Assembly (NCBI GenBank): GCA_023249675.1
Contig: JAHFCE010000003.1
Span: forward strand, 111,785-175,784
Length of the DNA: 64,000 bases
Direction of reading: 5' to 3'
Source: Elusimicrobiota bacterium
GTDB lineage: Bacteria > Elusimicrobiota > Elusimicrobia > UBA1565 > UBA9628
The position numbers and the translations under genes were made by a program. The notes beneath the pieces were generated by a model. It ran no database searches. It saw only the letters and a list, made by a program, of their open reading frames with translations, and was not told where the DNA came from. Shown in pieces: positions 2,178 through 55,119 of the stretch. Numbering within the stretch: position 1 is the stretch's first letter; the number at the start of each line of letters is the position of its first letter.

Positions 2178-2190
2178 CCGCGGAGAATTT

Positions 2191-4260: not shown

Positions 4261-4263
4261 GCG

Positions 4264-34631: not shown

Positions 34632-35015
34632 TCAAGCGGGTTTTGCCAGGATCGCTGTGATGCGCGCGTGGAGCTTGGCCATCTCGAAAGGCTTCTGCAG
34701 GACCTCGGTGGCGCCGCTCATCAGCGCGATGCCTTTTTCTTTAACTGTGTCGCGGCTGGTCATGATTAGGATGCGCGGAGCTTTTGCGCCAAGCTTGTTC
34801 GTCAGCTCGTAGGCCACGTGATAGCCGTCGATATAGGGCATCATGACGTCGAGCAGGACGAGGTCAATGGGTTCGTTGAGGGCGGTCTGCAGCGCGTCTT
34901 TTCCGTTCGCTGACGAGAGAACCTCGTATCCCTGATGAGCGAGATCCATCTTGAGCAGGTCGAGCAGATCCGGATCGTCATCGGCAACGAGGATTCGCTT
35001 CTTCGTGTCGGCCAT
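34632..35015 (-). CDS. Single-domain response regulator receiver (CheY-like)
   Basis: 'ILVADDDPDL', 'LVLLDVMMP' and 'TS...K' are receiver motifs. Confidence 0.85.
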   Translation of the reverse strand: MADTKKRILVADDDPDLLDLLKMDLAHQGYEVLSSANGKDALQTALNEPIDLVLLDVMMPYIDGYHVAYELTNKLGAKAPRILIMTSRDTVKEKGIALMSGATEVLQKPFEMAKLHARITAILAKPA

Positions 35016-35095
35016 TCCCTCTCCTTAATTGGTACGAATACCTTCGTGGATTTTAACCCATTTTCCCGGACCGCCACAACAGTTTAGCTTATCCA

Positions 35096-39224: not shown

Positions 39225-41255
39225 ATGAAGCCTGAAGAAATCCAGACGTGGGAGTCCTTCCTCAAGCGAACGCCCTTGTTCGCGGGCCTGTCGGCTGAGG
39301 ACTTGGGCAAGCTTGCCTCGCGTCTGCAGCTGCTGTCCCTGCCGAAGGGCGCGACTTTGTTCAAGCAAGGCGGCGAGTCCGACGCGCTGTACCTGATCGT
39401 CTCGGGCCATGCGCGCCGCTACCGCCTGACCGATGGGCGCGACGCGCTGGTGGCCTATCTCGGCCGCGGCGACATCGTCGGAGAGACGGGCCTGCTCACG
39501 AGCGCGCCGCGCTCTTCGACCGTTCGCGTGGACGCAACCAGCGAGCTGCTGAAGCTGCCGCGCAAGGATTTCGAAGACGTCCTGCGCGAACACCCGACCA
39601 TCCTGCGGCACCTGTCGCGCACGCTCGCCCACCGCCTCATCGAGGGCGGCCAGTCTTCGCCGCGCCCTTCTTCCGAGCAGGCCCGTCTCGTGGCGCTTGA
39701 CTGCGCTTTGCCGCGCAGCGAGCGGGCCTTGATCTCCTGGCGTCTTGGCGCCGAGCTGGCGGCGCAGACCCGGAAAAAAGTTCTTATCGTGGACCTGGCG
39801 GTCGAGCCCGGCGACATCGCGCGCGCCGCCGGCCTCAAGCCTTCGCCCGTGACCGAGACCGAGCTGCGCGGCGCGAATTTGCGCGACCCCGCCGCGCTGG
39901 CGGCGATGGCGCAGGAGCATCCATCGGGCGTGCGCGTTCTGTCGGTCTCGCCCGCCGCGCTCGGCGGCCGCCTGTTCAGCCAGCTGTACCTGTTCCTGAA
40001 CGCCGTGCGCGATAGCCACGAACTCGCCTTGCTGTGCTTGGGAGGGCCGCGCGGCGATGTCGAACGCGCAGCGCTCACCGAGGCCGATCTGATCCTGATG
40101 GCCGGCTGCGACGCGATGCGCCCGCAGTACCGCCACATGGAAGTCGAGGTGCCGCCGCTCGCTGAGGAGTCGCGCCGCCTCTTGAGGCTGTGGATCGGAG
40201 ATCTCGAACCCGAGGACGCTCCGCTGCTCATCGGAGCTGAGCGCGTCCTCGTGCCGTGGAGCGAGGCCGCGACCGAGGCCTATGAGCGCGACGGCGAGGC
40301 TGACGCCGCTTTCGCCCTCGAGCCGAAGGCGGCGAAAACGCTCGGCCGCCTGGCGCGTCGCATCGGCGGCGTCCAAGTGGGTCTGGCGCTGGGCACGGGC
40401 GCAGCGCTCGGCCATGCGGCGATCGGCGTGCTGAAAGTATTGAAACGCGAGGGCATTCCGGTGGATCTCATCGCCGGCACCTCCATGGGCTCCCTGATCG
40501 GGGGTTGCTATGCCGCCGGCTATGAGCCAGAGGAAATCGAGGAGCTTGTCCTGCGCATCGACAAGTCCTGGGTGTATGAGAATCTGTTCTGGGACCTCAC
40601 GATCCCGCGCTCGGGCTTCTTCGCGGGCGATACGATGCTGCGTTTTATCCGCTCTTACATGGGCTCGCGCGAGTTCGGCGACATGGACATTCCGTTCGCT
40701 TGCGTGGCCGCCGATATCGAGACCGGGGAGGAGGTCGTCCTCCGGCACGGCCGCGTTGCCGAGGCAATTCGCGCTTCGTGCGGCCTCCCCCTGATTTTTG
40801 AGCCGACCCAGCTGTCCGGGCGCTGGCTCGTTGACGGAGGCCTCGTCAATCCGGTGCCGACGCGCGTCATCGCCGATATGGGCGCTGACATCCTGCTCGC
40901 GGTCAACCTGACCTTGCCCGCCGGCGAGCGCAAGACGTCGGTGCACGAACGCCACAGTCGGCGCCTCTTGGATCAGCCGTTGTCATTGGAGACCTTGCGC
41001 CAGGCGGCGTTGCCCGTGCTGCCCAAGGCTTTCCGCGCGCCCAATTTTCTCGAGGTATTCTTCCAGATGATCTACACGATGGAGTACGAGGTGGCGCAGT
41101 CGCGTCTGGATTTGGCGCATGTGACCATGTTCCCCGATTTGAAGGGCTTCTCATGGACCGAGCTACATCGCGCCGGCGAGATCATTCGCGCGGGTGAGCT
41201 CGCGGCGGAAGAGGCGTTGCCGCGTCTTAAGGCCTTGATTCCCTCTCGACGTTGA
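39225..41255 (+). CDS. Cyclic-nucleotide-binding domain fused to a patatin-like phospholipase
   Basis: The N-terminal CAP-family cNMP-binding fold reads 'GGESDALYLIVSGHAR...GETGLL'. The C-terminal patatin has 'GLALGTGAALGHAAIGV', 'GTSMG' and 'VDGG'. Confidence 0.8.
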   Translation: MKPEEIQTWESFLKRTPLFAGLSAEDLGKLASRLQLLSLPKGATLFKQGGESDALYLIVSGHARRYRLTDGRDALVAYLGRGDIVGETGLLTSAPRSSTVRVDATSELLKLPRKDFEDVLREHPTILRHLSRTLAHRLIEGGQSSPRPSSEQARLVALDCALPRSERALISWRLGAELAAQTRKKVLIVDLAVEPGDIARAAGLKPSPVTETELRGANLRDPAALAAMAQEHPSGVRVLSVSPAALGGRLFSQLYLFLNAVRDSHELALLCLGGPRGDVERAALTEADLILMAGCDAMRPQYRHMEVEVPPLAEESRRLLRLWIGDLEPEDAPLLIGAERVLVPWSEAATEAYERDGEADAAFALEPKAAKTLGRLARRIGGVQVGLALGTGAALGHAAIGVLKVLKREGIPVDLIAGTSMGSLIGGCYAAGYEPEEIEELVLRIDKSWVYENLFWDLTIPRSGFFAGDTMLRFIRSYMGSREFGDMDIPFACVAADIETGEEVVLRHGRVAEAIRASCGLPLIFEPTQLSGRWLVDGGLVNPVPTRVIADMGADILLAVNLTLPAGERKTSVHERHSRRLLDQPLSLETLRQAALPVLPKAFRAPNFLEVFFQMIYTMEYEVAQSRLDLAHVTMFPDLKGFSWTELHRAGEIIRAGELAAEEALPRLKALIPSRR

Positions 41256-42816
41256 CGAGGGACAGGTGCGCGCCCTCGAGATCGCCCGAGGCGATCTGGC
41301 CGAAAATCGCCGTGAAGCACGACAGCCTGCGGTGGCGGCCCGCGACCTTGCGTCCGTATGACGTGGACTTCGCGTATGTGACGATCACATCATCGAGGAT
41401 CTCGCGCCAGCGGGGTTGCTTGAATGAGTTCTCGGCCACCCGGTAGGCAACCAGGCGATAATCAGACATGTCGCGTGAGAGATCGCGGCGCAGGCCGCGG
41501 CTTTCGGCCATCCTCTTCTCGATCGCGGCGATCTGTGAGAGCCATCCATCGGACCGCAGGGCGTCGAGCGATTGGCGGGCGTTCTCTTTGAGCTTGGCCA
41601 GGCGCTCCTCGTAGGACTCTCCGCGGCGTTTGTAGGATGCGCGGACGGCGGCGGCGGCCGGCGCCGCGGCGATGACGGCGAGCAAGTCAGCAGTGAGGAA
41701 TCCTTCTTCGGATTCGATGCGTGCGAGCTCCTCTTCCAGCGACGCCACGGTGAGCCAGCGCGCGGCCTCGCGTTGGCGGACGGAGAGTTCGATGAGAAGG
41801 GTCTTGGTGATTTGATTCGGGTCCTTGCTCTTCTCGGCGGCGGCTGCGAAGGAGGCGAGCGCCGACTTGGCCCGGTCGACCGCGGCGGCGCGTGCGATGA
41901 AGCGCTGCGATAATTTGTCCGCCGAGGTCTTGGCGAGCAGACGCGTCTCAAGGCCCGGGTCCTGCATGTCCTGTGCGGTCAGCTGGACCCCGCCCAACGT
42001 CGCAAGCTCGGCGAGGCGCGCGCGGCGCAGGCGCTCCTCGAGGTTGACGAGGTCATACGTGAGGCCGTACGTGGGATAGGACAGGGTCGCGTGGTCGAGT
42101 TTGCCGGTTTCGATCAGCTTCGGCGCGCCTGGGGGGCGGCGCGCGTTGAGCGCGCTCTGCAGGGACATCAGTTGGGGGGAGTAGCCGCGGATGTTACCGG
42201 CGGAGAGGCGGTCGTAGAATGAGCTCGCGAGCGCGGCGCTTGCCGAGGTATCGGAGGAGGCCTTGCCTTCGGGCGCCTGTGCCGCGATGACCTTCTCGCC
42301 TTGCGAACCCCTGCCCTCGAACAGGCTGCGGAGAAGTTCGCGCTTCTCCTCCTCGCCGGTCTGCTGGTCGGGGCTGCCCATGAGCTTTGACGTCTTCGCC
42401 GCACCCTTGAGCACGCCGAAGGCGCCGCGATCGGTGTTGTTGCGCTGGAAGGTTTGCTTGATGCGCTTGACCACGGTGTTCTCAAAGAGGTGCGTGCCGT
42501 CGGCCTCATCCTTGGCGAGACCGAGCGCAATCTCGGCGGCTGGGCCGAGGTCGCCCTGCACCCAGGCGCGGATGTCGGAGCGTTTTTTCTGGTCGTCGCG
42601 CTCCTCGCTGATGGCGCGCGCGATTTTCGACCGTAGAATGCGGTCGACGAGAGCCTCCTGAAGGCCGGGGTCGCTTTCGAGTTGTCGACGCATGTCGGCG
42701 ATGGCCTCGGAGCGGTCGCCCTCGACCGCGGTTCCTGCGGGTGTCGAGCTCGGTTCGCCGTCGTCGGCACGTAACACAGGGGTGAAGAGAAGGATCGTGA
42801 GGAGGGCCGTTCTCAT
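41227..42816 (-). CDS. Hypothetical secreted alpha-helical protein
   Basis: Signal peptide with helical low-complexity content. It is the last gene of the HK-TldD operon. Confidence 0.45.
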   Translation of the reverse strand: MRTALLTILLFTPVLRADDGEPSSTPAGTAVEGDRSEAIADMRRQLESDPGLQEALVDRILRSKIARAISEERDDQKKRSDIRAWVQGDLGPAAEIALGLAKDEADGTHLFENTVVKRIKQTFQRNNTDRGAFGVLKGAAKTSKLMGSPDQQTGEEEKRELLRSLFEGRGSQGEKVIAAQAPEGKASSDTSASAALASSFYDRLSAGNIRGYSPQLMSLQSALNARRPPGAPKLIETGKLDHATLSYPTYGLTYDLVNLEERLRRARLAELATLGGVQLTAQDMQDPGLETRLLAKTSADKLSQRFIARAAAVDRAKSALASFAAAAEKSKDPNQITKTLLIELSVRQREAARWLTVASLEEELARIESEEGFLTADLLAVIAAAPAAAAVRASYKRRGESYEERLAKLKENARQSLDALRSDGWLSQIAAIEKRMAESRGLRRDLSRDMSDYRLVAYRVAENSFKQPRWREILDDVIVTYAKSTSYGRKVAGRHRRLSCFTAIFGQIASGDLEGAHLSLVNVERESRP

Positions 42817-43559
42817 TTCCGCGCCCCATTTTTTTCCGTTGATGTTGACGTTTCCGTTTCAAAAGAGAACACGTCCCGCCTTCCCGAACGCACCACCCCA
42901 TCGTCGCCGATGCGGGCCAGCCCGAGCGTTAAATCCGAGGTCTCAATGTCCTTGCGCGTCTTCGTCCACAGATCAAAAAATGAATGCGTGTCGCTCTTGT
43001 CGGGCACGTTCCAGCGCGCGACCGCGTAGCGGCCTCCGGGTGTGAGAGCGAGGCTCACGAGGCGGGGGAAGGGCCCCGCCTGCAGCTGGGAGCCGCCCGT
43101 CCAGTCGCGCGCCTCGACGGACCACGACTCATCGACATGGCACGCGATCAGGATAACCTTCGAGTCGTTTGAAAATACGACGGGATCGCCTTTCTCCGGC
43201 CAGTCGACCGCGTCGTGGCTCCACAGCGTCTGTCCCGTTGAGCCGTGGATCTTGAGCACGCGGTGGGACTCGAGCAGTTTGCTTCGCGAGGGGCTCCAGG
43301 TGAGCTTGCGCTCAAGCGTCCAGGCCGCGCGCCCGTCCGGGGACGGGCCGCCGAGGACCTCGCGCGTGACGGTGCTGCTCTCCTCGCGCACTAGGCCAAT
43401 TTCGAAGACGAGGGCGCCCGCGGCGTCATAGAGCACAAGCGACTTGCCCTGTTTCGACCAGCCCGGCGTCGAGCGCGGTACGACCATCTCAGGCAGTGCG
43501 AGCACCTCCGCCGCGGAGGTGGGAAGCGCGAGCGCTGCGGCGAGCAGAGCGGCGATCAC
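42813..43559 (-). CDS. Hypothetical secreted beta-rich protein
   Basis: Signal peptide; Trp/Ser-rich beta strands. 4-bp overlaps with both neighbours. Confidence 0.45.
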   Translation of the reverse strand: MIAALLAAALALPTSAAEVLALPEMVVPRSTPGWSKQGKSLVLYDAAGALVFEIGLVREESSTVTREVLGGPSPDGRAAWTLERKLTWSPSRSKLLESHRVLKIHGSTGQTLWSHDAVDWPEKGDPVVFSNDSKVILIACHVDESWSVEARDWTGGSQLQAGPFPRLVSLALTPGGRYAVARWNVPDKSDTHSFFDLWTKTRKDIETSDLTLGLARIGDDGVVRSGRRDVFSFETETSTSTEKNGARK

Positions 43560-43981
43560 TTCGGCGCGGCCTCATCTGGCGGGACGGGAACGACGAATAT
43601 TTTCCCCTTCACGCGCGTGAACGCACGCACTGTCCAGGGACGAGAGATGACCTGGGTTGTGAAGCCGGTTGGGGTCTTGATCTTGTAGCGCACGGTCAGG
43701 TCCATGCCCCTGGGGATCGGTTTGAGGAACTCGACGGTGTAGCCGCCGGTCGGGCGCTCGCCCGCGAACACCGCGACGGCGAAATGAGTCTTGAAGTTGA
43801 GAGGGGGCGCGTCCTGGCCGAGCGTGCGCCACAGGCGCGTCCAGGCTCTCGCGTCGGCGGCGACCTCGGCGCCGGCGTCGATCGGGCCGCCGTGCTGTCC
43901 CTTCCACTCCAGGGTCTTCTCCACTTGCTTTGCGTGCGCGGGGCTCGCGCACAGAATTGCCGCGATCATCCAATTAATCAT
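43556..43981 (-). CDS. Hypothetical secreted protein, possibly PrcB_C-like
   Basis: Probable start at 'MINWMIAAILCASPAHA'. The segment 'FAVAVFAGERPTGGYTVEF' resembles the PrcB C-terminal domain consensus; this is from memory and not verified. Confidence 0.4.
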   Translation of the reverse strand: MINWMIAAILCASPAHAKQVEKTLEWKGQHGGPIDAGAEVAADARAWTRLWRTLGQDAPPLNFKTHFAVAVFAGERPTGGYTVEFLKPIPRGMDLTVRYKIKTPTGFTTQVISRPWTVRAFTRVKGKIFVVPVPPDEAAPK

Positions 43982-45353
43982 GACTGCCCCCCACGATGAG
44001 TTTGGGCATGCGGATCGTGGGCTGGCCATCGCTGACCGGAACGTTTTGCCCCTCTTTACCGCAGACGCCGATACCCCAGCCGATGTCCCAGCCGACGCGA
44101 TCGATCGAGCGTAGGGCTTCGGGCCCGACGCCGAGCAGGTTCGCGTCGCGCACGAGGTGCTTGACGGCTCCGTTCTCGATGCGCCAACCTTCGTCCACTT
44201 CGAAGACGAACTCGCCGCTCGCGGTGTCCACTTGGCCGCCGCCCATGCGCGTGACGAGCAGGCCGCGCTGAAGCTCCTTGATGATCCTGGCCGGATCGTC
44301 CTTGCCGGGCGCGATGTAAAGGTTCGACATGCGCGGGATCGGGCGCGCGGCGAAGGATTCGCGGCGTCCGTGCCCGTTTGAGGCGCGGTTCTCGCTCAGG
44401 GCCGTGGCGCGATCATACAGAAAGTCCGTGAGGACCCCATTGCGCACGAGCTCGGTCGCCCGCGCCGGCACGCCCTCGTCGTCGAACGCAAACGAGCCGC
44501 GCTGGAACGGCAAAGTGGGGTCGTCGACGACGGTGATCGTCTCGGGTGCGACGATCTTGCCCCGCATGCCCCGGTACGCGGGCGAGGAGCCCTCCTGGAC
44601 GTGGTCCGCCTCGAGTGAATGGCCGATGGCCTCATGGATGAAGGTGCCGCCCGCCGCCGCGGCGAGGACGACCGCCATCTCGCCGGCCTTGGCTTTAGGC
44701 GCATCGAGTTTGGCGAGCGCGCGCGCCGCGGCCCGGCGCGCGGCCTTGAGCGCCGCCCCGTCATCGAACACCTCAAAGCCGCGCTGTGCGCCGATGACCT
44801 CCATGCCGGTCTGCAGAATTCCGTCGCGCTCGGCGACGACGGAGACCAAGAGGCTGATCGACACGCGTCTTTGGACGATGTCGGTCCCTTCGGAATTGAG
44901 CAGGCGAGTGTCTTTTCTATGGTCGCTGTAGACGGCTGTCACTTGGCGCACAAGCGGGGAGAGAGACCGCGCGGCGCGGTCGATCCGGCTCAGCAGCGCC
45001 AGCTTATGCTCGAGCGGGACCGCCGCCGGATCGAGCCGGCACACGCTCGCGGCCGGGCGCGTCGCCGAAAACATGGGCCCGCGTTCGGGCGCGCCGGGCA
45101 GCAGCCGCTCGCGCAGGCGAGCTGCGGCGGCGGCCGACATGTCTTGCGCGCTGCCGAACAATGTTTCGACGCGGCCGCGGCCTCGCCGCAGGAGACGGAG
45201 TCCGAGGCCGCGCTCGTCGCTTGAGCCGATGTCGCGCACGGCTCTGTCCTCGAGCCGCGCGGTGGACTCGCGGGACTCCTCAAAGAAGACCTCACCGTAG
45301 TCGGTTCCGCAGAGAGCCGGGCCGTAGTCGTCGGCCCTGTCGCCAAGGCTCAC
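43974..45353 (-). CDS. tldD: TldD/PmbA-family metalloprotease
   Basis: 'HEAIGHSLEADHV' is the HExxxH motif and 'GGQVD' is present. The C-terminus is typical of TldD. Confidence 0.8.
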   Translation of the reverse strand: MSLGDRADDYGPALCGTDYGEVFFEESRESTARLEDRAVRDIGSSDERGLGLRLLRRGRGRVETLFGSAQDMSAAAAARLRERLLPGAPERGPMFSATRPAASVCRLDPAAVPLEHKLALLSRIDRAARSLSPLVRQVTAVYSDHRKDTRLLNSEGTDIVQRRVSISLLVSVVAERDGILQTGMEVIGAQRGFEVFDDGAALKAARRAAARALAKLDAPKAKAGEMAVVLAAAAGGTFIHEAIGHSLEADHVQEGSSPAYRGMRGKIVAPETITVVDDPTLPFQRGSFAFDDEGVPARATELVRNGVLTDFLYDRATALSENRASNGHGRRESFAARPIPRMSNLYIAPGKDDPARIIKELQRGLLVTRMGGGQVDTASGEFVFEVDEGWRIENGAVKHLVRDANLLGVGPEALRSIDRVGWDIGWGIGVCGKEGQNVPVSDGQPTIRMPKLIVGGSHD

Positions 45354-46885
45354 GCGTCTCTCTTGCGCGGCAAGGTCAGCGTGACGGTCGAACCCATGCC
45401 GAGCTTGGAGCTCAGGATCGCGCTGCCGCCGTGCAGCTCCGCGACCTTGCGCACGAAGGCGAGGCCCAGGCCCATGCCTTCCTGCTGGCCGGTAAAATCC
45501 TTCTCCACCTGATGAAAGCGGGAGAACACGCGCTCAAGCTCCTCCGGCGGCACGCCGGGTCCCGTGTCGGTCACCGTCACCGCGGCCCAGTCGCCTTGGG
45601 ACTCGGCGCGCAGCGCTATTGCCGGCGAATGCTTTACATTAAACTTGACCGCGTTGTCGATCAGGTTTTTGAGCGCCTCGACGACGAGCCGTTTGTCGCC
45701 CATGAGGATTAAACCGGTGGCGGTCGCCTCCACCGTCGCCTCGCGTTTGTCGATTTTTTCCTTAAGCGCCTCGAGTGCTTCCTTGATCGCCTCATCGAGC
45801 GAGAAAGGCTCCGGCTTGATTTGCGTGTCGGAGCTTTCGATGGTTGTGTAGCTAAGCAGCTTGTCGACGAGCTCGCTGACCTTGCCGCTCTGCGAGCGGA
45901 TCGCGCGCACGGCCTTGCTGATCGGTTGTTCGGTCTCCGCACCGAGCTCGCTGAGCAGAATGTCGGCAAAACCGGTCACGATCGCAAGCGGGGTGCGCAG
46001 TTTGTGCGAAATGAAGCTCAGAAACGTCCTCTTGAGCCTCTCCTGGCGGAAGCTTTCGGTGCGGTCACGGAACACGAATAGGCGCCCGTCGCTGTCGCCC
46101 AGGGGCGCGCGCGTCACGCGTCCCTCAAGGACGAGGAGGGTCGGATCTTTGCGTACCGCGGCAAAATCGAGCACCGGCCTATCGCCTGAGAACAGTTCGG
46201 GGATGGAGGGTGTGACCGCCATCGCGCTCAGACTCGCGACGAGATCCGTCAGCTCCGTTCCGAGAAGATGTGAGGCGGCCGCATTGGAGAGCAGGACCTT
46301 GCCTGCGGGATCCGTCAGGGCTGCGCCGTCGGTCATCTGCTCGAATACGGTCGCGAGCTTGAAGCGCTCCTCTTTGAGCGAGGAGAATAGCCGCGCGTTC
46401 TCAAGAGCGACCGCCGCTTGGGAGGCGAAAGCCTCGAAGGCGCGCAGGTCCGCGTCGCTGAAATCGCCGTCGCGCTTGTTGATGGCCTCGAGCACTCCGA
46501 CGAGGCGTCCTTTGATCAGCATCGGCACCGCCAGAATCGAGCGCGTGACGAACCCAGACTGCTCGTCTATCGCAGGCGACCAGCGCGGGTCTTCGCGCGC
46601 CACGTTGATGATCTCGGGCGCGCGGTTTTTGGCCACCGCCCCGGCGATGCCCTGGCCGAGCGGTAGGCGGATTTTTGTCGCATCGGGGCCGAGGCCTAAA
46701 GCCACGTCGAAGTAGAGTTCCTGGGTTTTCTCATCGAGCAGAAGGAGCGAGGCGCTTTCCGCCCCCACGACGTGAGTGGACAGCTCGAGTACCGCGGTCA
46801 GAAGTTCGCTGAGCTCGAGCTTAGAAGACAAGAGCCGTCCAACCTCGAGAAGCAGCTCCAACGTCTGCGCGTTCGTCGCGGGCAT
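45350..46885 (-). CDS. Sensor histidine kinase with N-terminal GAF domain
   Basis: A GAF domain is followed by a second sensory region, an H-box 'SHKLRTPL' and HATPase N/G boxes ('DNAVKF', 'DTGPGV', 'GLGL'). Confidence 0.8.
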   Translation of the reverse strand: MPATNAQTLELLLEVGRLLSSKLELSELLTAVLELSTHVVGAESASLLLLDEKTQELYFDVALGLGPDATKIRLPLGQGIAGAVAKNRAPEIINVAREDPRWSPAIDEQSGFVTRSILAVPMLIKGRLVGVLEAINKRDGDFSDADLRAFEAFASQAAVALENARLFSSLKEERFKLATVFEQMTDGAALTDPAGKVLLSNAAASHLLGTELTDLVASLSAMAVTPSIPELFSGDRPVLDFAAVRKDPTLLVLEGRVTRAPLGDSDGRLFVFRDRTESFRQERLKRTFLSFISHKLRTPLAIVTGFADILLSELGAETEQPISKAVRAIRSQSGKVSELVDKLLSYTTIESSDTQIKPEPFSLDEAIKEALEALKEKIDKREATVEATATGLILMGDKRLVVEALKNLIDNAVKFNVKHSPAIALRAESQGDWAAVTVTDTGPGVPPEELERVFSRFHQVEKDFTGQQEGMGLGLAFVRKVAELHGGSAILSSKLGMGSTVTLTLPRKRDA

Positions 46886-47036
46886 GTTTCGCTACCCTAC
46901 CAAATCTCCACCACGAGCGAAGTATAGGAGGAAGCTCCGGAGAGCGCAAGTCAGGGATGTTACAGCCCATTCGTCCCGACAACGGCCTGACGGGAGAATG
47001 GTATGATGGGCCCGGGAAAAACCTTAAGATCTCGAT

Positions 47037-48173
47037 ATGAAGAAATTATTCATCGCCGTCGTCGCGCTGGTCGCGCTCAATGCCCAGGCCGACCCCGTTG
47101 CCGCCGGCCGCGCCCGCGCTCGGGAACTCGGCATCATCGTTGGCCGCATGACGCCCGGCAAACTCAACGCGATCACGGACGTCGCCGGCGTCCGGGTGGG
47201 CCACGTCACCGTGAGCCGGGGCGATGGTCCTCATGCGGCGCGCACCGGCGTGACCGCGATCCTGCCTCACGGCGGAGACCTCTGGAACGAGAAGGTGCCG
47301 GCCGCGACCTGGGTCTATAACGGCAACGGCGAAATGACGGGCGTTCTTTGGCTCAACACGCAGGGCGCCCTCGATGTCCCGCTTCTGCTCACCAACACGA
47401 TGAATATCCCGCGCGTGGCCGACGGCGCTGTCTCCTACATGCTCAAGCGCTACCCGGCCATCGGCAAAAGCGACGATGTGGTGATTCCGGTGGTGGGCGA
47501 GTGCGATGACTCGACTCTCAATGACGCCCGCGGCCGGCACGTGACGTCCGAGGACGCGATCTTGGCCATCGAGTCCGCCCAATCCGGCCCGGTCGCCGAG
47601 GGCTCGGTGGGCGCTGGCGCTGGCATGATCGCCTATGGCTTCAAGGCCGGCATCGGCACGGCCTCGCGGGTGTTATCGGCGCAAGACGGGGGCTGGACGA
47701 TCGGGGTTTTGGTCAACGCGAACATGGGCTGCTGCCGCGAAAACCTGACCATGGCGAACGCTCCGGTCGGCAAGGAGATCGGCGAGTTGCCGGTCAAGGC
47801 CTCGGACGGCTCCATCATCGTCGTGGTGGCGACCGATGCGCCGCTCGATCACCTCAAGCTTCAGCGGCTTGCTTCCAAGGCCGCCATGGGCCTGGCGCGG
47901 ACGGGAAGCACGGCCCGCCATGGGAGCGGCGACATCTTTCTCGCCTTCTCCACCGGCAATCGCATTCCCCACTATCCGAAGGGCCTAACTTACGCGATGA
48001 AGATCGTGGATGATGATCACTTAAATCCCCTGTTCGAGGCCGCCCAGGAGTCGACGGAAGAGGCGATCCTCAACGCCCTGACCACCGCGACGACCACGGC
48101 GGGCAGGGACGGCAACGTCGCTTACGCAATTCCACTCGATCGGCTGCGCGAAGTGATGAAAAAGCGCCCGTGA
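47037..48173 (+). CDS. Peptidase S58 (DmpA/OAT family aminopeptidase) with signal peptide
   Basis: 'ITDVAGVRVGH' and the self-processing 'G|S/T' region are characteristic of DmpA. Confidence 0.7.
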   Translation: MKKLFIAVVALVALNAQADPVAAGRARARELGIIVGRMTPGKLNAITDVAGVRVGHVTVSRGDGPHAARTGVTAILPHGGDLWNEKVPAATWVYNGNGEMTGVLWLNTQGALDVPLLLTNTMNIPRVADGAVSYMLKRYPAIGKSDDVVIPVVGECDDSTLNDARGRHVTSEDAILAIESAQSGPVAEGSVGAGAGMIAYGFKAGIGTASRVLSAQDGGWTIGVLVNANMGCCRENLTMANAPVGKEIGELPVKASDGSIIVVVATDAPLDHLKLQRLASKAAMGLARTGSTARHGSGDIFLAFSTGNRIPHYPKGLTYAMKIVDDDHLNPLFEAAQESTEEAILNALTTATTTAGRDGNVAYAIPLDRLREVMKKRP

Positions 48174-49156
48174 ACGCGTTTCGTCTGGGACTGATTTTTC
48201 TGGTGGTCGCCCAGACATCCTGCCGGCACGGCGCTGTTCAAAGCTCGTCTCGCCAGGCCTCAACCTCCTCGGCGGATGGGCGCATGTCCTTGCCGCAACT
48301 TGATGGCCGTTTGACGTCCTTGGGCGTCGATGGCCGCTGGAAGATGGACGTGGTCTACGCGTATCCCCAGGAAGAGGCCTTGAAGATTGTCGCTTGGCGC
48401 ACCCGGCGCGAAGGCAAGGCTCTTTGGCTCCTGGCCGGCATTCATGGAGAGGAGCCCGCCGGCCCCAACGCGATCATCCGCAGCCTGAAGAGCCTCTCCG
48501 CCTTAGCCGACTTAGGCGTGCCGATCGTCCTCATCGCGATGTGCAATCCCAAGGCTTACCGCAGCAACTGGCGTTATCCCAATACGCCGGAAAGGGATTG
48601 GCGCAAAGGCGGCTACAGTGTCGGCGACGCCGAATACCTGCTTCCAGATTTGGCGGGGGGACAGGCGCCGCGCGCGGCAAGCCCCGTCGGTCCGGAGGCG
48701 CGAGCCCTCACGTCTTACGCCCTGCGACTTTCCGAGTCCTATCCGCCCCGACTGGTGCTGGATTTGCACGAGGACGAGCTTTCCATGGAAGGCGGCTATA
48801 TTTATTCGCAGGGTCAACAGTCGATCGACAATCCGGCGGGAGAAAAAATTATCCGTTTGCTTCAGTCTTCCGGCATCCCCCTGCGACTGTCCGGCAAGAC
48901 GCGTTTCGGAGAACCTGTCCAGAATGGCGTGGTCAGCCGGGATGAAAAGGGGCTTCCGATCCGGGACGGCTCGATCGATGAATTATTCGCCTCCACTCAA
49001 GTCTTCAAAAATAAAAAACTGATTCCGGGTCCTTCCGCCCAAACGGTGATTGTCGTCGAGACGCCGGCTTTTTCAGGCTCTAATCTGGACAAGCGCGTGG
49101 GCGCGCAGAGTGCCATCCTCAACGCGATTGAGGAGCTGTGGACACTAAGCCCGTAG
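48170..49156 (+). CDS. M14-like zinc carboxypeptidase/deacylase (AstE/AspA subfamily)
   Basis: 'GIHGEEPAG' and 'DLHED' are the zinc-ligand motifs. Signal peptide present. Confidence 0.6.
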   Translation: MNAFRLGLIFLVVAQTSCRHGAVQSSSRQASTSSADGRMSLPQLDGRLTSLGVDGRWKMDVVYAYPQEEALKIVAWRTRREGKALWLLAGIHGEEPAGPNAIIRSLKSLSALADLGVPIVLIAMCNPKAYRSNWRYPNTPERDWRKGGYSVGDAEYLLPDLAGGQAPRAASPVGPEARALTSYALRLSESYPPRLVLDLHEDELSMEGGYIYSQGQQSIDNPAGEKIIRLLQSSGIPLRLSGKTRFGEPVQNGVVSRDEKGLPIRDGSIDELFASTQVFKNKKLIPGPSAQTVIVVETPAFSGSNLDKRVGAQSAILNAIEELWTLSP

Positions 49157-49564: not shown

Positions 49565-50623
49565 GTGAAGAAAACGCTTGTCGTCTTAGCGGCGCTTCTC
49601 CTGTGCCCCGCCGTCCAGGCCCGCAAACCAAAAATAAAAACCCTTCTCTCGGCTTTCGAAGCCGCAAAAACCGACGAGCGCATCCGTCTGGCCGCCGCTC
49701 TCGGCCGCAGGAAAAACAAAAAAACCACCGACGCCCTGCTCCTCGCCTTCGACGTCAAGCGCGGCGACCCGCGCGAAAGCGCCGCCTACGTGGACGCCCT
49801 TGGCCAAGCGGGCGATCCGCGCGCCGTCGAGCCGCTTGCCGCCGCTTGGGACTACCTCCGTTCCCTAATCCTTCCGATGGGCGGGCTCCCGGGGCAACTC
49901 CAGGTCCTGAGCGAGAAGATCCTCGACGCCCTGAGCCGTCTCGGCGGCGACCGGGCGGTGCGCGTTCTTTTTGAAGCGCTCGCCGATCCAGACCCGCGCG
50001 TGGCCCAAGAAGCCGTGCGCGGCCTCGGCCGTCTCCGGGTGAAGGACGCCGTCCCGGTTCTCCAGCAGAAGTTGGCGGCGGGCGCTTCGGGCAACCTCCT
50101 CCAGGCGATTTGTGAGGCCCTGGGCGACATCGGCGACAAGCGTGCCCTCTCCACTCTTGAGAAGTCGGCCGCGAATCCAGACACGCTCGTCGCGGCCGAG
50201 GTCTCCTACTCTCTCGTCAAGCTCGGCAAGAAGGAGGACCTGGTTCGCCTGCAGGGTTTCCTGGAGGGCGATTCCGGCGCGGGGGCCGCGGGCCTGCTCG
50301 CGGCCTACTACCTCGTCAAGCTCGATAAGGACGCGGGTCTTGAGTACCTCGAGAAAACGATGAAAAAGCGGGACAGCGCGCTGGCTCCCGTCGCGGCCGA
50401 GACCTTGGGCAAAACCGGCAATCCGCGCGCGGTCCTCGTTCTCATCGAGGTTCTCCAGGCGCCGGATTCCGCCGTGCGCCTCTCGGTGGCGCGCGCTTTG
50501 GGGCGCTTGGGCGGGCCGCGCGCGGTGACGGCCTTAAAGAAGCTGCGCGCCGACCCCGATCCCGGCGTGAGCGGCGCGGCCGTCAACAGCCTGAACGATC
50601 TTGGCGAAATCGACTTGAGATGA
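49565..50623 (+). CDS. Periplasmic HEAT-repeat (PBS-lyase HEAT-like) protein
   Basis: Signal peptide followed by repeated 'D..VR..A..ALG.lgd..A...L' units. Confidence 0.7.
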   Translation: MKKTLVVLAALLLCPAVQARKPKIKTLLSAFEAAKTDERIRLAAALGRRKNKKTTDALLLAFDVKRGDPRESAAYVDALGQAGDPRAVEPLAAAWDYLRSLILPMGGLPGQLQVLSEKILDALSRLGGDRAVRVLFEALADPDPRVAQEAVRGLGRLRVKDAVPVLQQKLAAGASGNLLQAICEALGDIGDKRALSTLEKSAANPDTLVAAEVSYSLVKLGKKEDLVRLQGFLEGDSGAGAAGLLAAYYLVKLDKDAGLEYLEKTMKKRDSALAPVAAETLGKTGNPRAVLVLIEVLQAPDSAVRLSVARALGRLGGPRAVTALKKLRADPDPGVSGAAVNSLNDLGEIDLR

Positions 50624-52824
50624 GCCGAGAGACGCGCATCGGCGACTGTTGGGGCGGCCTGGCTGCGATGCTCGTCGCCCTTCCCCAGGCCTTGGCTTTC
50701 GGCGTGGCGATTTTCGCCCCGCTGGGACCCGAGCGCGCGGCCGAAGGGGCTCTCGCCGGCCTCGTGGGCGCGGCCGCGCTCGGCATGGTGGCCGCCTGGC
50801 TGGGAGGCGCGCCGCGCCTGGTCTCAGCGCCCTGCGCGCCGGCCGCGGCGGTGCTGGGCGGCCTTGCCGCCGTGCTTGCCGCGCGCTATGGGCCTGAGCG
50901 AGCGGCGGCACTTCTGATGCTCACCGGCCTGTTCTCGGCTTTGCTCCAGCTCGCCTACGGCTTAGCGGGGGGAGGTCGCCTCATCAAATTTATTCCCTAC
51001 CCGGTCGTGACCGGCTATCTGAGCGGCGTCGCCGTGCTCATGGCGCTCAGCCAGCTGCCGCGCCTGCTGGCCTTGCCCGCGGGCGCCGGCCTCGCTGCCG
51101 GGCTCGCGTCTCCGTCCTCCTGGAGCGGGCCGGGCTTGATCGTGGGCCTAACGGCGATGTTCGCCATGGTCGTGGCCCCGCGCCTGACCAAGGCCGTTCC
51201 CGCGCCCGTCGTGGGGCTGGCCGCGGGTGTGACCGCGTACTGGGCGGCCAGCCTTGTCCATCCTGAATTGCGCACTGTGTCGGGCAACGCGCTCGTCGTC
51301 GGGCGTCTGCCGGGCGGCATCGCCGGGATGTGGTCGGCGCTGGGTTCGCGCTGGTCGGGCTTGAGCGGTTTTGACGCGGGCATGTTCAAGGCGGCGGCCA
51401 TGCCCGCGGCCACGTTATCGCTTCTTCTCTCCGTCGACACGCTCAAGACCTGCGTGGTCGTCGACACGCTCACGCGCTCGCGCCACGATTCTGATCGCGA
51501 ATTACGCGGCCAGGGCCTGGGCAACCTTGCCGCGGCTTTGCTCGGAGGGGCCGCGGGTGCTGGCACGATGGGGGCCACCCTGGTCAACATCAATGCGGGC
51601 GGGCGCACGCGTCTCTCCGGTGCGCTGGCCGGGGCCTTCACTGTGCTGACCCTTCTGCTGGCCGGCCCGCTCGTCGCCTGGGTGCCGGTGCCGGCGTTGG
51701 CCGGCATCCTGCTCATCGTGGCTTGGCGCATGTTCGACCGGAAAAGCCTTCGTCTTCTGAGACGCCGCTCGACCCAGCTTGATTTCGCCGTGAGCGCCGC
51801 CGTCATCGTCGCCGCCGTCAGCATCGATTTGATCGCCGCCGCGGGAATCGGCATCGGCCTGGCCGCGCTTCTCTTCCTGCGCGACCTCTCGCGCGGCTCC
51901 GTCGTGCGCCGCAAGGTCCGTGGCGACGCCGTGACCTCGCGTCAGCGCCGCCTGCCCGCCGAGCGCGAGGCCCTGCGCGAGTTGGGCTCGGCCGTCGTCC
52001 TCTGCGAGCTGCAGGGAAGCCTCTTTTTCGGCACCACGGACCAGCTGCTCAGCGAGCTCGACGCCGACCTCAAGACCTGCCGCTTCGTCATCCTCGACCT
52101 CAAGCGCGTGCAAAGCGTCGATTTCACCGCCGCGCACATGCTCAAGCAGATCGAGGACCGTCTGCACGAGCGCGGCGGCCGCCTGCTGCTGTGCCAGCTG
52201 CCGCAAAACCTGCCCACCGGCCAGGACCTCGAGTCCTATTTCGCCGAGGTGGGATTGGTCAAGCCCGAGCGCTTTGTCAGCGTTTTTGGCGAGCTCGACG
52301 CCGCCCTCGAGTGGGTCGAAGACCGGCTCCTGTCCGACGCGGGCCTGGCTCCGCCCGTTTCGGCGGCGCCGCTGGGCCTTCAAGACATCGAGCTGTTCCG
52401 CGAGCTCGACGCCGATGAGACGGCCTCCGTGCGCTCCATCCTGCGCGAGCTTTCCGCGCCCGCGGGTTCGGCCGTCTTTCGCCGCGGCGAGGCCGGCGAT
52501 GAGGTTTTTCTCATCCGCAAGGGCCGCGTGCGCATCCTCCTTCCCCTCGAGGGCGGCAAGGAGCATCACAAGGAACACCATGTGGCCACCTTCGGCCGGC
52601 GCGACTTCTTCGGCGAGGTCGCCTTCCTCGACCGGGGCGCTCGCACCGCCGACGCCGTGGCGCTGACCCCCACGGAGCTTTTCGCGCTGTCGCGCGCGCG
52701 CTTCAACGACCTGTCCCGCTCCCACCCCGCCTTGGGCGCCATGCTTTTTGCGCGCTTGTCGCACGCCCTGGCCCTGCGCCTGCGCCAGGCCGATGAGGAG
52801 CTGGGACTGCTCCACGACGCTTAG
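50620..52824 (+). CDS. SulP-family anion transporter with STAS domain and C-terminal cyclic-nucleotide-binding domain
   Basis: The SulP TM core is followed by a STAS domain ('VVLCELQGSLFFGTTDQL') and a cNMP-binding fold ('FRRGEAGDEVFLIRKGRVRI...FGEVAFL'). Confidence 0.8.
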   Translation: MSRETRIGDCWGGLAAMLVALPQALAFGVAIFAPLGPERAAEGALAGLVGAAALGMVAAWLGGAPRLVSAPCAPAAAVLGGLAAVLAARYGPERAAALLMLTGLFSALLQLAYGLAGGGRLIKFIPYPVVTGYLSGVAVLMALSQLPRLLALPAGAGLAAGLASPSSWSGPGLIVGLTAMFAMVVAPRLTKAVPAPVVGLAAGVTAYWAASLVHPELRTVSGNALVVGRLPGGIAGMWSALGSRWSGLSGFDAGMFKAAAMPAATLSLLLSVDTLKTCVVVDTLTRSRHDSDRELRGQGLGNLAAALLGGAAGAGTMGATLVNINAGGRTRLSGALAGAFTVLTLLLAGPLVAWVPVPALAGILLIVAWRMFDRKSLRLLRRRSTQLDFAVSAAVIVAAVSIDLIAAAGIGIGLAALLFLRDLSRGSVVRRKVRGDAVTSRQRRLPAEREALRELGSAVVLCELQGSLFFGTTDQLLSELDADLKTCRFVILDLKRVQSVDFTAAHMLKQIEDRLHERGGRLLLCQLPQNLPTGQDLESYFAEVGLVKPERFVSVFGELDAALEWVEDRLLSDAGLAPPVSAAPLGLQDIELFRELDADETASVRSILRELSAPAGSAVFRRGEAGDEVFLIRKGRVRILLPLEGGKEHHKEHHVATFGRRDFFGEVAFLDRGARTADAVALTPTELFALSRARFNDLSRSHPALGAMLFARLSHALALRLRQADEELGLLHDA

Positions 52825-54959
52825 AGCCGGACGCCCTGGCGCTTGAAGTAAGACGCGACGGCCTCGACGGCGAGGTACGTAAATCCCAGAACGTCGGCGT
52901 GCCCGGATAGCTTGGCAAGGCGCTTCAGCTTGCCGATGGTTTTGAGCGCGGCCCGGCGTCCGCCGCCGGCTTTTCTCCAATCTTGAACGTACCGCGCGCG
53001 GAACCATTCCATGGCATCCGTGGCGTCCATGTCCCGGATGGAGTCCTTGTCGTTGTCGTTCTCGAGGGGCAAACGTCGTAGAAAGGCCGCCTGCCGCTTG
53101 ACCCCGGCTTGATGGAGCCGCTCGAGTTTGCGCAAAAGCGGCGTGGGCTTGCCGAGAAGGTTGGAGAGGGCCGCGTTGCCGAGCGTGGGATTCCTGCCGG
53201 CGTCCAGGGAGAAGCTCTGCGTCCCCGGGTTCGTCTCGATGATGACGTAGTCTCCGTCCCGGCGCTTGGCGACGTCGAAGCCTCCGCTGAAATAGCGGCC
53301 TTTTTCGGGGAGCCTGTCCAGAAAACTTTCGATAAGCCGCTTGGCCTGGCTTTCCTCATCGGGCCGATAGTCCCAGCCGTAACGGAACCGAGAGTTCACG
53401 ACGTGCCCATCCAAGACGTCGACGCGAAATTCGATAAGCTCGCCCCTGCGGTTCTTCGCAAGGTCGAGCTTCTCCTGCACCAGGACGTCCCCGGGGCGGG
53501 CGATCAACGCGTGGATCACCGCCGTCCGCGAGGGGCCCTCCGTCATCAGACGCCTCAGCTCGGGATCGAGGGCCGAGATCGGATGGAGGCCCAGGAAGTC
53601 CTTGACCTTTTTCAGGTCGGAGAGGTAGTCGGCGGCCATCTCGTCCGGGTCGCTCAAAAAGGTGGCGACCATGGACGCGCTCTCGCGCGTGGCGTACGCC
53701 GTGCGGAACTTGATGAAAGCGCCCTTTGGGAACTTTTCACGGGACAGTCGGAAGAACTCCTTGACGAGACCCGCGACCTCGCGTTGACGTTCGTCCGCGC
53801 CGGCCTCGTCCGGATTGCCGATATATTCCTCGATGAGGCGCCGCACCTCGGCTTGGCGGCTCTTGAATGCCCCCGTCCGCTTCTTCACAAGAGCCTGACC
53901 GGTCAGTCCCTTGGCCATGAAAGAGGGATCCGCGGAGCGGACCCACGCGGATTCGGTGACCTTATCGAGGCGGGCCAAGAGCCGCCCTTGGCCTAACAGG
54001 GGATTGAGATCTCCTCGAACCAGAAAGGACTTGGGGGAGGGGGAAATAGGCAGGACAAGGCCCGGCAGTTTCACGGGCGTGGAATGATCGGCAAGGTCTT
54101 CGGCATAGAACACGCGGGCCCCGTAAAGCCTCTCGTTGTCCCGCATGTGCTCCTCATTGACTGGACGCCATCCGGGGAGCACGATTGTCACGCCCTTCTC
54201 GGCTGCCTGGCGGATCGCGGCGAGAGTTCGCGGGGGCGTGCCGCGGGGCGTGGGCGCGTTCGTCCAAAGCTCGAAATCGCTGGGCTCTGGATTCTCCGGC
54301 GCCGCGCGACTGGAGCGCTTGCCATCGCGCCAGACGTAGATCGTGTGCAGCGTCGCCGAGGTGCGCTCGATGGAGCGCACTCCTCGGACTCGGCTCAAAC
54401 TCTTGAGGTCGCGGGGGTTCGCCTCGCCCGGCAGGGCCTTGCCCGGTTCAGGTCGACCAAGAACGCGGAAGCCCCTTTTCGCCAGCCGTGCCGCGACTGT
54501 GCGAGCACCCTCCGCCGAGAGCCGCGGGCTGAGCACGGCGCTTGCCAAGCGGGTCTGCGCCAGGGGAAAGTGCCGGGCGGGCTCTTCCAAAAACATCAAC
54601 GCGCGCTGACCGGGAGGCGCGGGTTCGACGTCTTCTAAGGAGAAGGAGGCGGTCTGATCGAAAAGCGCGGCTGCGGACTGATGCTGAGCCGCCAGGGGGT
54701 CATTGCGTTTCTGCGCGAGAACGCCAGCCGGCGCGACGTTGACGCGGGGCGCAGGCACAGTCGGCGCCGCGACGAAGAGAGTTGGAGAGACGGGGGGCGC
54801 GTACGGCGCCAAGCCGACGGCCGGGACGATCGGCGCAAGCGCGATTGTCGGCGCCGCGCCGCCGCCGACCTCCGCCGCCGGCAGCGCCGCGAGAGCGGCG
54901 CCGGCCCACGTCCGAAGCAGGAGGGAAAGGACGACTGCGATCAGGGACCGAACTCTCAT
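52821..54959 (-). CDS. Signal-peptide/anchor protein with a C-terminal ATP-grasp-like domain
   Basis: N-terminal hydrophobic segment, then a Pro/Ala linker. The C-terminus ('IEFRVDVLDGHVV...DYVIIETNPG') resembles the ATP-grasp 'E.N..PG' motif. Confidence 0.55.
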   Translation of the reverse strand: MRVRSLIAVVLSLLLRTWAGAALAALPAAEVGGGAAPTIALAPIVPAVGLAPYAPPVSPTLFVAAPTVPAPRVNVAPAGVLAQKRNDPLAAQHQSAAALFDQTASFSLEDVEPAPPGQRALMFLEEPARHFPLAQTRLASAVLSPRLSAEGARTVAARLAKRGFRVLGRPEPGKALPGEANPRDLKSLSRVRGVRSIERTSATLHTIYVWRDGKRSSRAAPENPEPSDFELWTNAPTPRGTPPRTLAAIRQAAEKGVTIVLPGWRPVNEEHMRDNERLYGARVFYAEDLADHSTPVKLPGLVLPISPSPKSFLVRGDLNPLLGQGRLLARLDKVTESAWVRSADPSFMAKGLTGQALVKKRTGAFKSRQAEVRRLIEEYIGNPDEAGADERQREVAGLVKEFFRLSREKFPKGAFIKFRTAYATRESASMVATFLSDPDEMAADYLSDLKKVKDFLGLHPISALDPELRRLMTEGPSRTAVIHALIARPGDVLVQEKLDLAKNRRGELIEFRVDVLDGHVVNSRFRYGWDYRPDEESQAKRLIESFLDRLPEKGRYFSGGFDVAKRRDGDYVIIETNPGTQSFSLDAGRNPTLGNAALSNLLGKPTPLLRKLERLHQAGVKRQAAFLRRLPLENDNDKDSIRDMDATDAMEWFRARYVQDWRKAGGGRRAALKTIGKLKRLAKLSGHADVLGFTYLAVEAVASYFKRQGVRL

Positions 54960-55119
54960 CGCCTCAGTATGCCCGGCGCACCCCGCGCCCGCGAGAGTCT
55001 TGCGGCCCAAACCGTCTAGGTCTGATATCTGAACGCAAACGCCCCGAAAGACCCATGCCTTTTAAGTCGGTTGCTGGTAGCATACGCTGTCGCTGAAATC
55101 CAAACTTTGAGGTTTTAAA

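Follow-up and report, generated by a model that had tools for sequence, protein, structure and literature searches.

Peptidases of the TldD/TldE type are among the most widespread in bacteria and archaea, and their documented substrates, microcin B17 and CcdA, are plasmid-borne. Regarding their native cellular function, there are suggestions only (PMC5810440). In the 64-kb stretch of DNA analysed here (the window), from a metagenome-assembled genome of Elusimicrobiota, a tldD gene is translationally coupled to the gene of a sensor kinase and to the genes of three predicted exported proteins, which raises the question of whether this linkage is meaningful and, if so, what TldD does in such company. 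A literature search returned no publication pairing TldD/PmbA with Elusimicrobia and, among the results listed, none describing the operon.

The operon extends on the minus strand over positions 46885..41227 and is composed of five ORFs with successive start/stop overlaps of 4, 8, 4 and 4 nt. In the order of transcription, these encode a soluble sensor histidine kinase (HK; 511 aa, 45350..46885) of the GAF-PAS-HisKA-HATPase_c type, a TldD-type metallopeptidase (459 aa, 43974..45353) with intact catalytic residues and without an export signal, a PrcB_C-domain protein (141 aa, 43556..43981), and two proteins named for their lengths, hyp248 (248 aa, 42813..43559) and hyp529 (529 aa, 41227..42816), with the last three being predicted to be exported. 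At the HK/TldD junction, the overlap reads GTGA, the tldD start lying over the kinase stop. The preliminary description had proposed five overlapping genes forming a single operon; the minus-strand ORFs and their coordinates agree with this, as does the tight coupling through the four overlaps.

Upstream, a 151-bp intergenic region (46886..47036) between the HK gene and a divergent plus-strand gene for an S58 peptidase is the presumed operon promoter region; since a scan of positions 40900-47300 for the sigma-70 consensus gave no promoter-like site, this role is assigned from position only. A terminator scan returned only two weak terminator-like sites, both within coding sequence. Downstream, outside the operon, lies the convergent gene of a patatin-like phospholipase with a cNMP-binding domain (39225..41255, plus strand; Pfam Patatin 2.1e-33, cNMP_binding 2.9e-22), whose 3' end overlaps that of the operon by 29 nt and which keeps this downstream position in many related loci. 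Further peptidases encoded in the window besides S58 are M14-like, C1-like and M2 ones, together with a POT peptide transporter; the peptidase genes other than tldD, S58 included, are located 0.2-15 kb from the operon, and their synteny in relatives is inconsistent.

Of 80 other species-level genomes, nearly all show the same gene order and overlaps, with the identity of their TldD to that of the window ranging from 50 to 90%. The operon is also carried by GCA_965283875.1, a single-contig Elusimicrobiota genome of 3.1 Mb. A 4-nt overlap is found at the HK/TldD junction in 55 of 68 genomes, at the PrcB_C/hyp248 junction in 39 of 54, and at the hyp248/hyp529 junction in 51 of 55, an arrangement far beyond chance. 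TldD and the PrcB_C protein constitute an invariant core which is retained in nearly all relatives, including those in which the kinase was lost and those in which hyp248 and hyp529 were lost. A reverse search with a hyp529 profile yielded 51 metagenome loci, and in none of these did hyp529 occur apart from TldD. The proposal of a TldD system for exported substrates had been made dependent on the conservation of the hypothetical proteins with tldD, and they are indeed conserved with it in the 80 genomes and the 51 metagenome loci. Every example of the operon comes from one phylum, Elusimicrobiota. The linkage of TldD with exported proteins is real and previously undescribed, while its function has to be inferred.

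All three Pfam domains of the family were detected in the window TldD above their respective cutoffs—PmbA_TldD_3rd (PF19289; 3.5e-65, 219.7 bits, cutoff 22), PmbA_TldD_2nd (PF19290; 1.8e-18, 67.4 bits, cutoff 20.9) and PmbA_TldD_1st (PF01523; 2.8e-06, 27.8 bits, cutoff 20.9). Its identity to E. coli TldD amounts to 38% over the full length, compared with 24% to TldE. Its HEAIGH motif (residues 240-245) and C431 align with HEAVGH and C454 of the E. coli enzyme, and H240, E241 and C431 are invariant in 76 of 76 TldD sequences. The HExxxH motif with a C-terminal Cys ligand, which separates TldD from TldE, places the protein on the TldD branch (MEROPS U62/M103). It scores below the NCBIfam equivalog cutoffs for both NF008006 (279.7 bits, cutoff 513) and the archaeal NF040952 (225.4 bits, cutoff 635); by sequence, it is TldD-type, yet an equivalog of neither. 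Of 77 TldD orthologues, 76 have neither a Sec nor a Tat signal; lacking an export signal and carrying the Cys ligand, TldD should therefore act in the cytoplasm.

A second ORF of the TldD/E family is absent from the 64-kb window, and an E. coli TldE query (phmmer) matched only TldD in the window and in every related locus. Likewise, no TldE/PmbA gene is present within 10 kb in the 80 genomes and 51 metagenome loci. The idea that one of the downstream ORFs might be a diverged TldE was rejected: none of the ORFs following tldD, for which TldD/PmbA HMMs had been recommended, gave any Pfam or NCBIfam signal of the family, and the TldE phmmer search matched TldD only. The claim of a lone TldD with no tldE nearby is, thus, correct locally, in the window and within 10 kb in relatives, but the local gap says little about the genome. 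As the two genes are unlinked and far apart in E. coli, too (tldD at 3.39 Mb, tldE at 4.46 Mb), local absence of tldE is weak evidence for a lone TldD. Going by record names only, each of the 80 genome loci seems to derive from a different assembly. From these sequence comparisons, the window TldD looks like the ordinary orthologue of the phylum and not like a specialised extra copy.

The first gene of the operon encodes a two-component sensor kinase according to its HisKA (2.3e-11) and HATPase_c (1.2e-26) domains, accompanied by a GAF domain (GAF_2; 1.8e-20) and a weak PAS match; the translation contains the H-box SHKLRTPL. With a maximum of 1.71 for the Kyte-Doolittle mean over 19 residues, no segment reaches the hydrophobicity of a transmembrane helix. 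HK is found in 68 of the 80 related loci (41-80% identity); in one clade it is missing, with TldD being the first gene and the other genes retained. The preliminary description had noted a kinase without a cognate response regulator nearby. This holds for the operon, which encodes no receiver domain and no adjacent response regulator, but 6.2 kb downstream on the same strand a stand-alone receiver of 130 aa is encoded (34635..35024, minus strand; Pfam Response_reg 1.5e-23), which is the nearest candidate partner of the kinase. Several close relatives possess a receiver-domain ORF of equal size at a similar distance downstream, and the kinase may pair with such a receiver.

Signal-peptide-like N-termini, absent from HK and TldD, are present on all three proteins encoded after tldD, in line with the preliminary description, and on most of their orthologues (PrcB_C protein 65/71, hyp248 53/61, hyp529 60/65). 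One of the three had, in addition, been described as containing a PrcB_C-like segment, which Pfam substantiates (PF14343; 39.7 bits, cutoff 24, E 5.6e-10); this protein also carries the conserved PTGGY motif. The longest ORF for its gene starts at 44029; in identical public contigs, gene prediction has placed the start at the ATG of position 43981, giving the 141-aa product. The full-length PrcB equivalog NF033596 is not reached (28.3 bits, cutoff 125). A lipobox is absent from the window protein and present in 8 of 71 orthologues, and neither the operon nor the scanned neighbours contain a PrcA-like or a subtilisin gene. The PrcB_C domain family comprises more than 5,000 representative proteins, in which the domain occurs in tandem arrays or fused with ECF-sigma, FecR or SLH domains; given the known properties of the partner domains, we read these settings as extracytoplasmic.

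For hyp248, no Pfam family was found; its predicted fold is all-beta with four-stranded blades and structural similarity to known propellers, indicating a partial beta-propeller of about 4-5 blades. The best structural matches of the predicted model are propeller domains of peptidases, but these matches are generic, with WD40 and PD40 proteins being nearly equal in score and the rmsd being high. For hyp529, the last gene product, Pfam searches with 43 orthologues returned no family and a profile search revealed no PDB sequence relative. It possesses a near-invariant motif at residues 211-248, GYSPQLxALQSxLNxRRxPGAPxLxETGKLDYxTLxYP, which at first sight resembled PG_binding_1; a peptidoglycan-binding function was rejected, as neither Pfam (43 orthologues, E<=0.1) nor the PDB profile search supported it.

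The analysis shows which genes are present, how they are coupled and conserved, that the catalytic residues are intact, and which folds are predicted; localisation, complex formation, the partner of TldD and the physiological task are inferred as follows. We tentatively favour, as possible rather than probable, a vertically inherited, translationally coupled and Elusimicrobiota-specific module in which the kinase, a cytoplasmic TldD and the exported trio take part in envelope-spanning turnover. The soluble GAF-PAS kinase would sense a cytoplasmic signal, with its output passing through a receiver encoded elsewhere. By analogy to E. coli TldD/E, an ordinary, intact cytoplasmic TldD would degrade unfolded peptides within a closed, dimeric shell, pairing either with another TldD or with a TldE whose gene lies elsewhere. 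The PrcB_C protein, the partial propeller and hyp529 would be exported via Sec and assemble outside the cytoplasmic membrane. What links them to TldD may be co-expression in fixed proportions and not an enzyme/substrate relationship, with the two halves serving one task, the turnover of proteins and peptides across the envelope—the periplasmic half would handle proteins by means of PrcB-like modules and propellers such as occur in protease complexes, while the cytoplasmic TldD would dispose of the peptides produced. Besides the conserved linkage, the intact TldD and the distribution of signal-like N-termini, the module is favoured by the role of PrcB in T. denticola, by the peptidase matches of the propeller, and by the further peptidases and the POT transporter of the window. 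It counts against this module that the operon contains no gene for an extracytoplasmic protease, that the PrcB_C match is confined to the Pfam domain, that the propeller matches are generic, and that the other peptidase genes are distant and inconsistently syntenic. Conserved operons may also combine functionally unrelated genes. Taken more broadly, a TldE-free Elusimicrobiota TldD functionally bound to a phylum-specific periplasmic complex of three proteins around the PrcB_C protein would represent an as yet unrecognised trans-envelope proteolytic or signalling system and would reveal a native role of TldD; in this wider form, we consider the proposition unlikely.

A direct functional link is not needed if an ancestral transcription unit happened to combine a housekeeping tldD with envelope genes unrelated to it and was preserved by inheritance and by the cost of breaking the overlaps. 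Mixed-function operons are common, rearrangement of overlapping start and stop codons would be costly, and TldD appears to be an ordinary orthologue; moreover, all examples are from one phylum, and independent origins of the linkage are, therefore, not demonstrated. Yet the linkage persists to 50% TldD identity while the flanking genes differ, hyp529 is separated from TldD in 0 of 51 independent metagenome loci, and the TldD-PrcB_C pair outlasts gene loss on either side, which makes a mere relic of inheritance not very likely. Following the preliminary description, TldD without TldE may instead be a dedicated, kinase-regulated maturation protease for at least one of the three exported proteins. 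The tight translational coupling, the two-way conserved linkage and the lack of a TldE nearby are compatible with this, as are the maturation of microcin B17 by TldD/E via leader removal (PMC5810440) and the reported activity of a Sulfolobus TldD as a dimer without TldE (PMC3497727). The candidate substrates, however, are folded proteins of 140-530 aa and not short peptides, and they carry ordinary N-terminal signal peptides that are needed intact for export. Maturation of Sec-exported proteins is topologically unlikely because N-terminal trimming would take off the signal peptide, an awkwardness compounded by a TldD that has no export signal and keeps its Cys ligand. A missing tldE nearby is also true of E. 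coli, and the operon encodes neither a precursor peptide nor modification enzymes as would be expected of a RiPP/microcin-type cluster, since a small ORF would not fit between the overlapping genes and none of the scanned neighbours is a RiPP enzyme. Altogether, proteolytic maturation of the secreted proteins is quite improbable.

Two further explanations assign the exported trio a more specific part. In one of them, it would sense the state of the envelope, with kinase and TldD serving as cytoplasmic output and TldD degrading a regulator. This would accord with the fusion of PrcB_C to ECF sigma-factor and FecR domains in other bacteria and with the first position of the kinase, overlapping tldD by 4 nt in 55 of 68 genomes; in the MtrAB-LpqB system, extracytoplasmic propeller lipoproteins modulate kinases. 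Degradation of CcdA by TldD/E provides a parallel for the proposed output (PMC5810440, PMC3497727). However, the kinase has no transmembrane segment and the operon no membrane-spanning component, and therefore no path for a periplasmic signal is evident; one clade has the remaining genes without the kinase, and a candidate regulator as TldD substrate is missing, so that envelope sensing is improbable on balance. The other explanation envisages a non-classical export of TldD into an extracytoplasmic protease complex which is stabilised by the PrcB-like protein and in which the propeller gates access of substrates. PrcB of Treponema denticola is a subunit that stabilises the protease of its own operon (PMC8167434), in nearly all relatives the PrcB_C gene comes immediately after tldD, and S9 and tricorn peptidases use propeller domains to gate their substrates. 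Against this stand the missing Sec/Tat signal in 76 of 77 TldD orthologues, the Cys metal ligand kept in all, which fits a reducing compartment, and the lack of precedent for export of a signal-less TldD; it is a highly improbable alternative. An anti-phage defence system was rejected, since the one PADLOC match, of 22 bits, was a weak and generic one to an ATPase domain in the kinase, with none for the other four proteins.

Whichever of these explanations applies, a phylum-wide coupled operon offers a tangible genetic setting for studying the cellular role of TldD, and the PrcB_C family, linked with a protease in dentilisin, gains a second such context. If whole genomes lacked tldE, these bacteria would provide a natural case of a bacterial TldD that is independent of TldE.

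The best-investigated relative, E. coli TldD/E, is a heterodimeric metalloprotease which degrades unfolded peptides within a closed shell and accounts for microcin B17 leader removal and CcdA degradation (PMC5810440). The window TldD has in common with E. coli TldD the set of Pfam domains, the HExxxH motif with the C-terminal Cys ligand, the lack of a signal peptide, and a gene apart from tldE. Unlike the E. coli protein, it lacks D216 and D218, the acidic residues of the plug loop, and its gene is translationally coupled to a kinase gene upstream and to genes of exported proteins downstream. TldD of Sulfolobus solfataricus (Sso0660) has the identical HEAIGH motif and is reportedly active as a self-dimer, which is a precedent for TldD without TldE (PMC3497727). 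Sso0660, unlike the window TldD, is archaeal and its gene adjoins that of the TldE-like Sso0661, and its interpretation as a disulfide dimer was disputed by structural work on the E. coli proteins (PMC5810440).

Concerning the exported proteins, the closest parallel is the prcB-prcA-prtP operon of Treponema denticola, which likewise combines a small exported PrcB_C-domain protein and a protease, and whose PrcB is a lipoprotein subunit required for the stability of that protease (PMC8167434). The dentilisin protease is, in contrast, an exported, acylated subtilisin whose gene is preceded by prcB, whereas the window operon encodes neither a PrcA nor a PrtP homologue, and its PrcB_C protein has no lipobox. 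With the ECF sigma-factor and FecR fusions, the operon shares the PrcB_C domain (roughly 115 residues), its presumed extracytoplasmic location and a link to a signalling protein; in the fusions, the domain is joined to the signalling protein itself, whereas in the window it constitutes a separate secreted protein encoded together with a soluble kinase.

On the minus strand of the window, from 46885 to 41227, reading of the open reading frames (ORFs) gives five genes in a row, i.e., a histidine kinase of 511 aa (45350-46885; Pfam GAF, weak PAS, HisKA and HATPase_c), a TldD protein of 459 aa (43974-45353; all three PmbA/TldD domains), a PrcB_C-domain protein (43556-43981; Pfam PrcB_C, E 5.6e-10; 141 aa when counted from the ATG chosen by gene callers on identical public contigs), and the 248-aa and 529-aa proteins hyp248 (42813-43559) and hyp529 (41227-42816), to which neither Pfam nor an NCBIfam scan assigns a name. 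For the operon proteins, NCBIfam is in accord with the Pfam domain calls. The overlaps at the four junctions are, from the kinase gene onwards, 4 (GTGA), 8, 4 and 4 nt. The last three products have short, signal-peptide-like N-termini, and a sequence scan of the kinase and TldD found no hydrophobic segment, either N-terminal or internal. The operon structure of the preliminary description is, thus, right in every detail. A gap of 151 bp separates the kinase gene from a divergent S58 peptidase gene; at the other end, the convergent gene of a cNMP-binding patatin-like phospholipase (39225-41255, plus strand), syntenic in many relatives, shares 29 nt of its 3' end with that of the operon.

A search of public data gave a 100% match to the window TldD, along with over 120 relatives of 62–88% identity, and every relative with a source name comes from Elusimicrobia or Elusimicrobiota MAGs. 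Scanning one genome per GTDB species yielded 80 loci, all from Elusimicrobiota (TldD identity 50–90%), and tblastn with the five window proteins recovered the order kinase-TldD-PrcB_C-hyp248-hyp529 in most of them. With starts re-called beside the upstream stop, the kinase/TldD junction is -4 in 55 of 68 loci, the TldD/PrcB_C junction -8, -4 or -11 in 59 of 69, and the PrcB_C/hyp248 and hyp248/hyp529 junctions -4 in 39 of 54 and 51 of 55, respectively. All five genes are also present in the single-contig, 3.1-Mb genome GCA_965283875.1 (TldD identity 68%). In the reverse direction, a profile built from orthologues of hyp529 picked up 51 metagenome loci, among which hyp529 was never found away from this context; TldD and PrcB_C genes precede it, in the same order, wherever enough upstream DNA is available. 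The secreted hypotheticals are, thus, conserved with tldD, and the coupling of the operon genes is clearly real and upheld by selection or a strong constraint.

The module varies at its edges. The kinase gene is absent in one clade (L037, L038, L046, L048, L052, L057, as well as L100, L104, L116 and L129), where the operon begins at tldD; at locus L057, for instance, tldD is the first gene, and the divergent genes upstream appeared unrelated when inspected. In the most divergent loci (L067, L070, L081, L083), the kinase, TldD and PrcB_C genes remain, but no hyp248 or hyp529 adjoins them, a weak hyp529-like gene lying 3.8 kb off in L070 (hhalign probability 81%). Because of these losses at either end, TldD and the PrcB_C protein are the pair retained in nearly all relatives.

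The window TldD shares 38% identity with E. coli TldD (over 457 residues) and 24% with TldE. Its HEAIGH motif and Cys431 align with the metal-binding motif and Cys454 of the E. coli protein, and since these positions are invariant in 76 of 76 sequences, this TldD-type subunit is predicted to be catalytically competent. It scores under the NCBI equivalog cutoffs for bacterial and archaeal TldD alike. Full-length similarity, together with the finding that, judged by record names, each of the 80 genome loci seems to come from a separate assembly, suggests that it is the ordinary TldD of the phylum rather than an extra, specialised paralogue. When E. coli TldE from the annotated K-12 genome was used as a phmmer query, TldD was picked up in every locus, indicating adequate sensitivity, and neither the 64-kb window nor the 1.28 Mb of the 80 genome loci nor the 0.47 Mb of the 51 metagenome loci gave a second TldD/TldE-family match; hence, tldE is never a neighbour of the operon in the DNA scanned. 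This local absence is no proof of genome-wide absence, as tldD and tldE are also far apart in E. coli K-12 (3.39 and 4.46 Mb) and an unlinked gene is expected to escape when only 20 kb of a 3-Mb genome are sampled. Literature on TldE-independent TldD points in both directions: the E. coli protein needs TldE for activity (PMC5810440), while a Sulfolobus TldD is reportedly active as a homodimer (PMC3497727).

Among the exported proteins, the one with the PrcB_C domain shows a conserved N-terminus of the mature form (MEWKGQxGGP) along with the motifs PTGGY and GFxTQAxxQPW, and its relatives carry the NCBI name "protease complex subunit PrcB family protein". The PrcB_C profile has 5,109 members among 1.84 billion representative proteins; many of them form tandem arrays, and other members are fusions with ECF sigma-factor, FecR, SLH or Lcl_C-ankyrin domains, settings which we read as extracytoplasmic and often tied to signalling or cell-wall anchoring. 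For hyp529, which bears a near-invariant motif of 38 residues, no family and no PDB relative were found.

The kinase had been described as lacking a cognate regulator nearby, which holds for the operon itself, where no receiver domain is present, but less so for its surroundings, where a 130-aa stand-alone receiver is encoded on the same minus strand beyond dnaE (34635-35024). In several close relatives, too, an equally long ORF with a receiver domain is found about as far downstream. In L039 (14829-15542), L049 (14271-15053) and L061 (14633-15370), a minus-strand receiver-domain ORF follows immediately after hyp529, in the opposite orientation, and is a candidate partner different from the stand-alone receiver of the window clade. 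Both are candidates only, as none of these positions proves pairing. The operon, headed by the GAF-domain kinase gene, is flanked by two cyclic-nucleotide-binding proteins, the patatin-like phospholipase and a SulP-STAS-cNMP transporter (50620-52824, plus strand); a cyclic-nucleotide theme common to operon and flanking genes is possible.

Elsewhere in the window, AT skew is strongly negative (-0.23 to -0.40) over 4000-12000, at 66–68% GC, where envelope/membrane genes are located (a Wzy_C O-antigen-ligase-like protein, two 640-650-aa ORFs without a Pfam family and an LPG_synthase_TM protein); a secretin gene (2002-4260) lies just upstream. Two large ORFs of 729 and 360 aa (52821-55010 and 57211-58293, both minus), putative genes in this high-GC sequence, match no Pfam family at E<=1e-3. 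S58 (DmpA-like), AstE/AspA M14-like, C1-like and M2 (angiotensin-converting-enzyme-like) peptidases and a POT-family transporter occupy 47037-49156, 55470-57206, 59050-60837 and 25920-27302; the complete genome L003 likewise has an M2 peptidase close to the operon.

Tentatively, and with less than even confidence, we regard the operon as a co-expressed two-compartment module, in which an exported complex would be assembled around the PrcB-like subunit and the propeller of hyp248—elements accompanying proteases elsewhere—while cytoplasmic TldD may serve peptide disposal, with the soluble GAF-PAS kinase encoded upstream. The other peptidases and the POT peptide transporter fit such a peptide-turnover setting, although their synteny in relatives is not consistent. 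That the operon is historically frozen, its genes lacking a functional link, is unlikely, and an envelope-sensing pathway with TldD as effector protease is rather improbable. Maturation of the secreted proteins by TldD, as initially proposed, seems quite unlikely for four reasons: TldD has no export signal and retains its Cys ligand; it is known to work on unfolded peptides that thread into a closed shell; the proposed targets are folded and need an intact N-terminal signal peptide to be exported; and neither a precursor peptide nor a modification gene is present. An exported, dentilisin-like complex containing TldD is very improbable.

Each recognisable part of the operon is a member of a known family; in the literature searched, we found no description of this conserved set of genes, of the almost invariable pairing of TldD with PrcB_C or of the two families so far encountered only in Elusimicrobiota. 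Interest would climb sharply if whole genomes prove tldE-free or if the TldD-PrcB_C adjacency turns up in other phyla. Compared to true dentilisin PrcB, the window protein matches the C-terminal domain only (28 vs. 125 bits). In contrast to E. coli TldD, whose acidic surface loop with Asp216 and Asp218 has been proposed as a channel "plug" (PMC5810440), the window TldD has this loop deleted at about residue 196 (E. coli 216-220), and both aspartates are missing in 76 of 76 Elusimicrobiota-type sequences compared.
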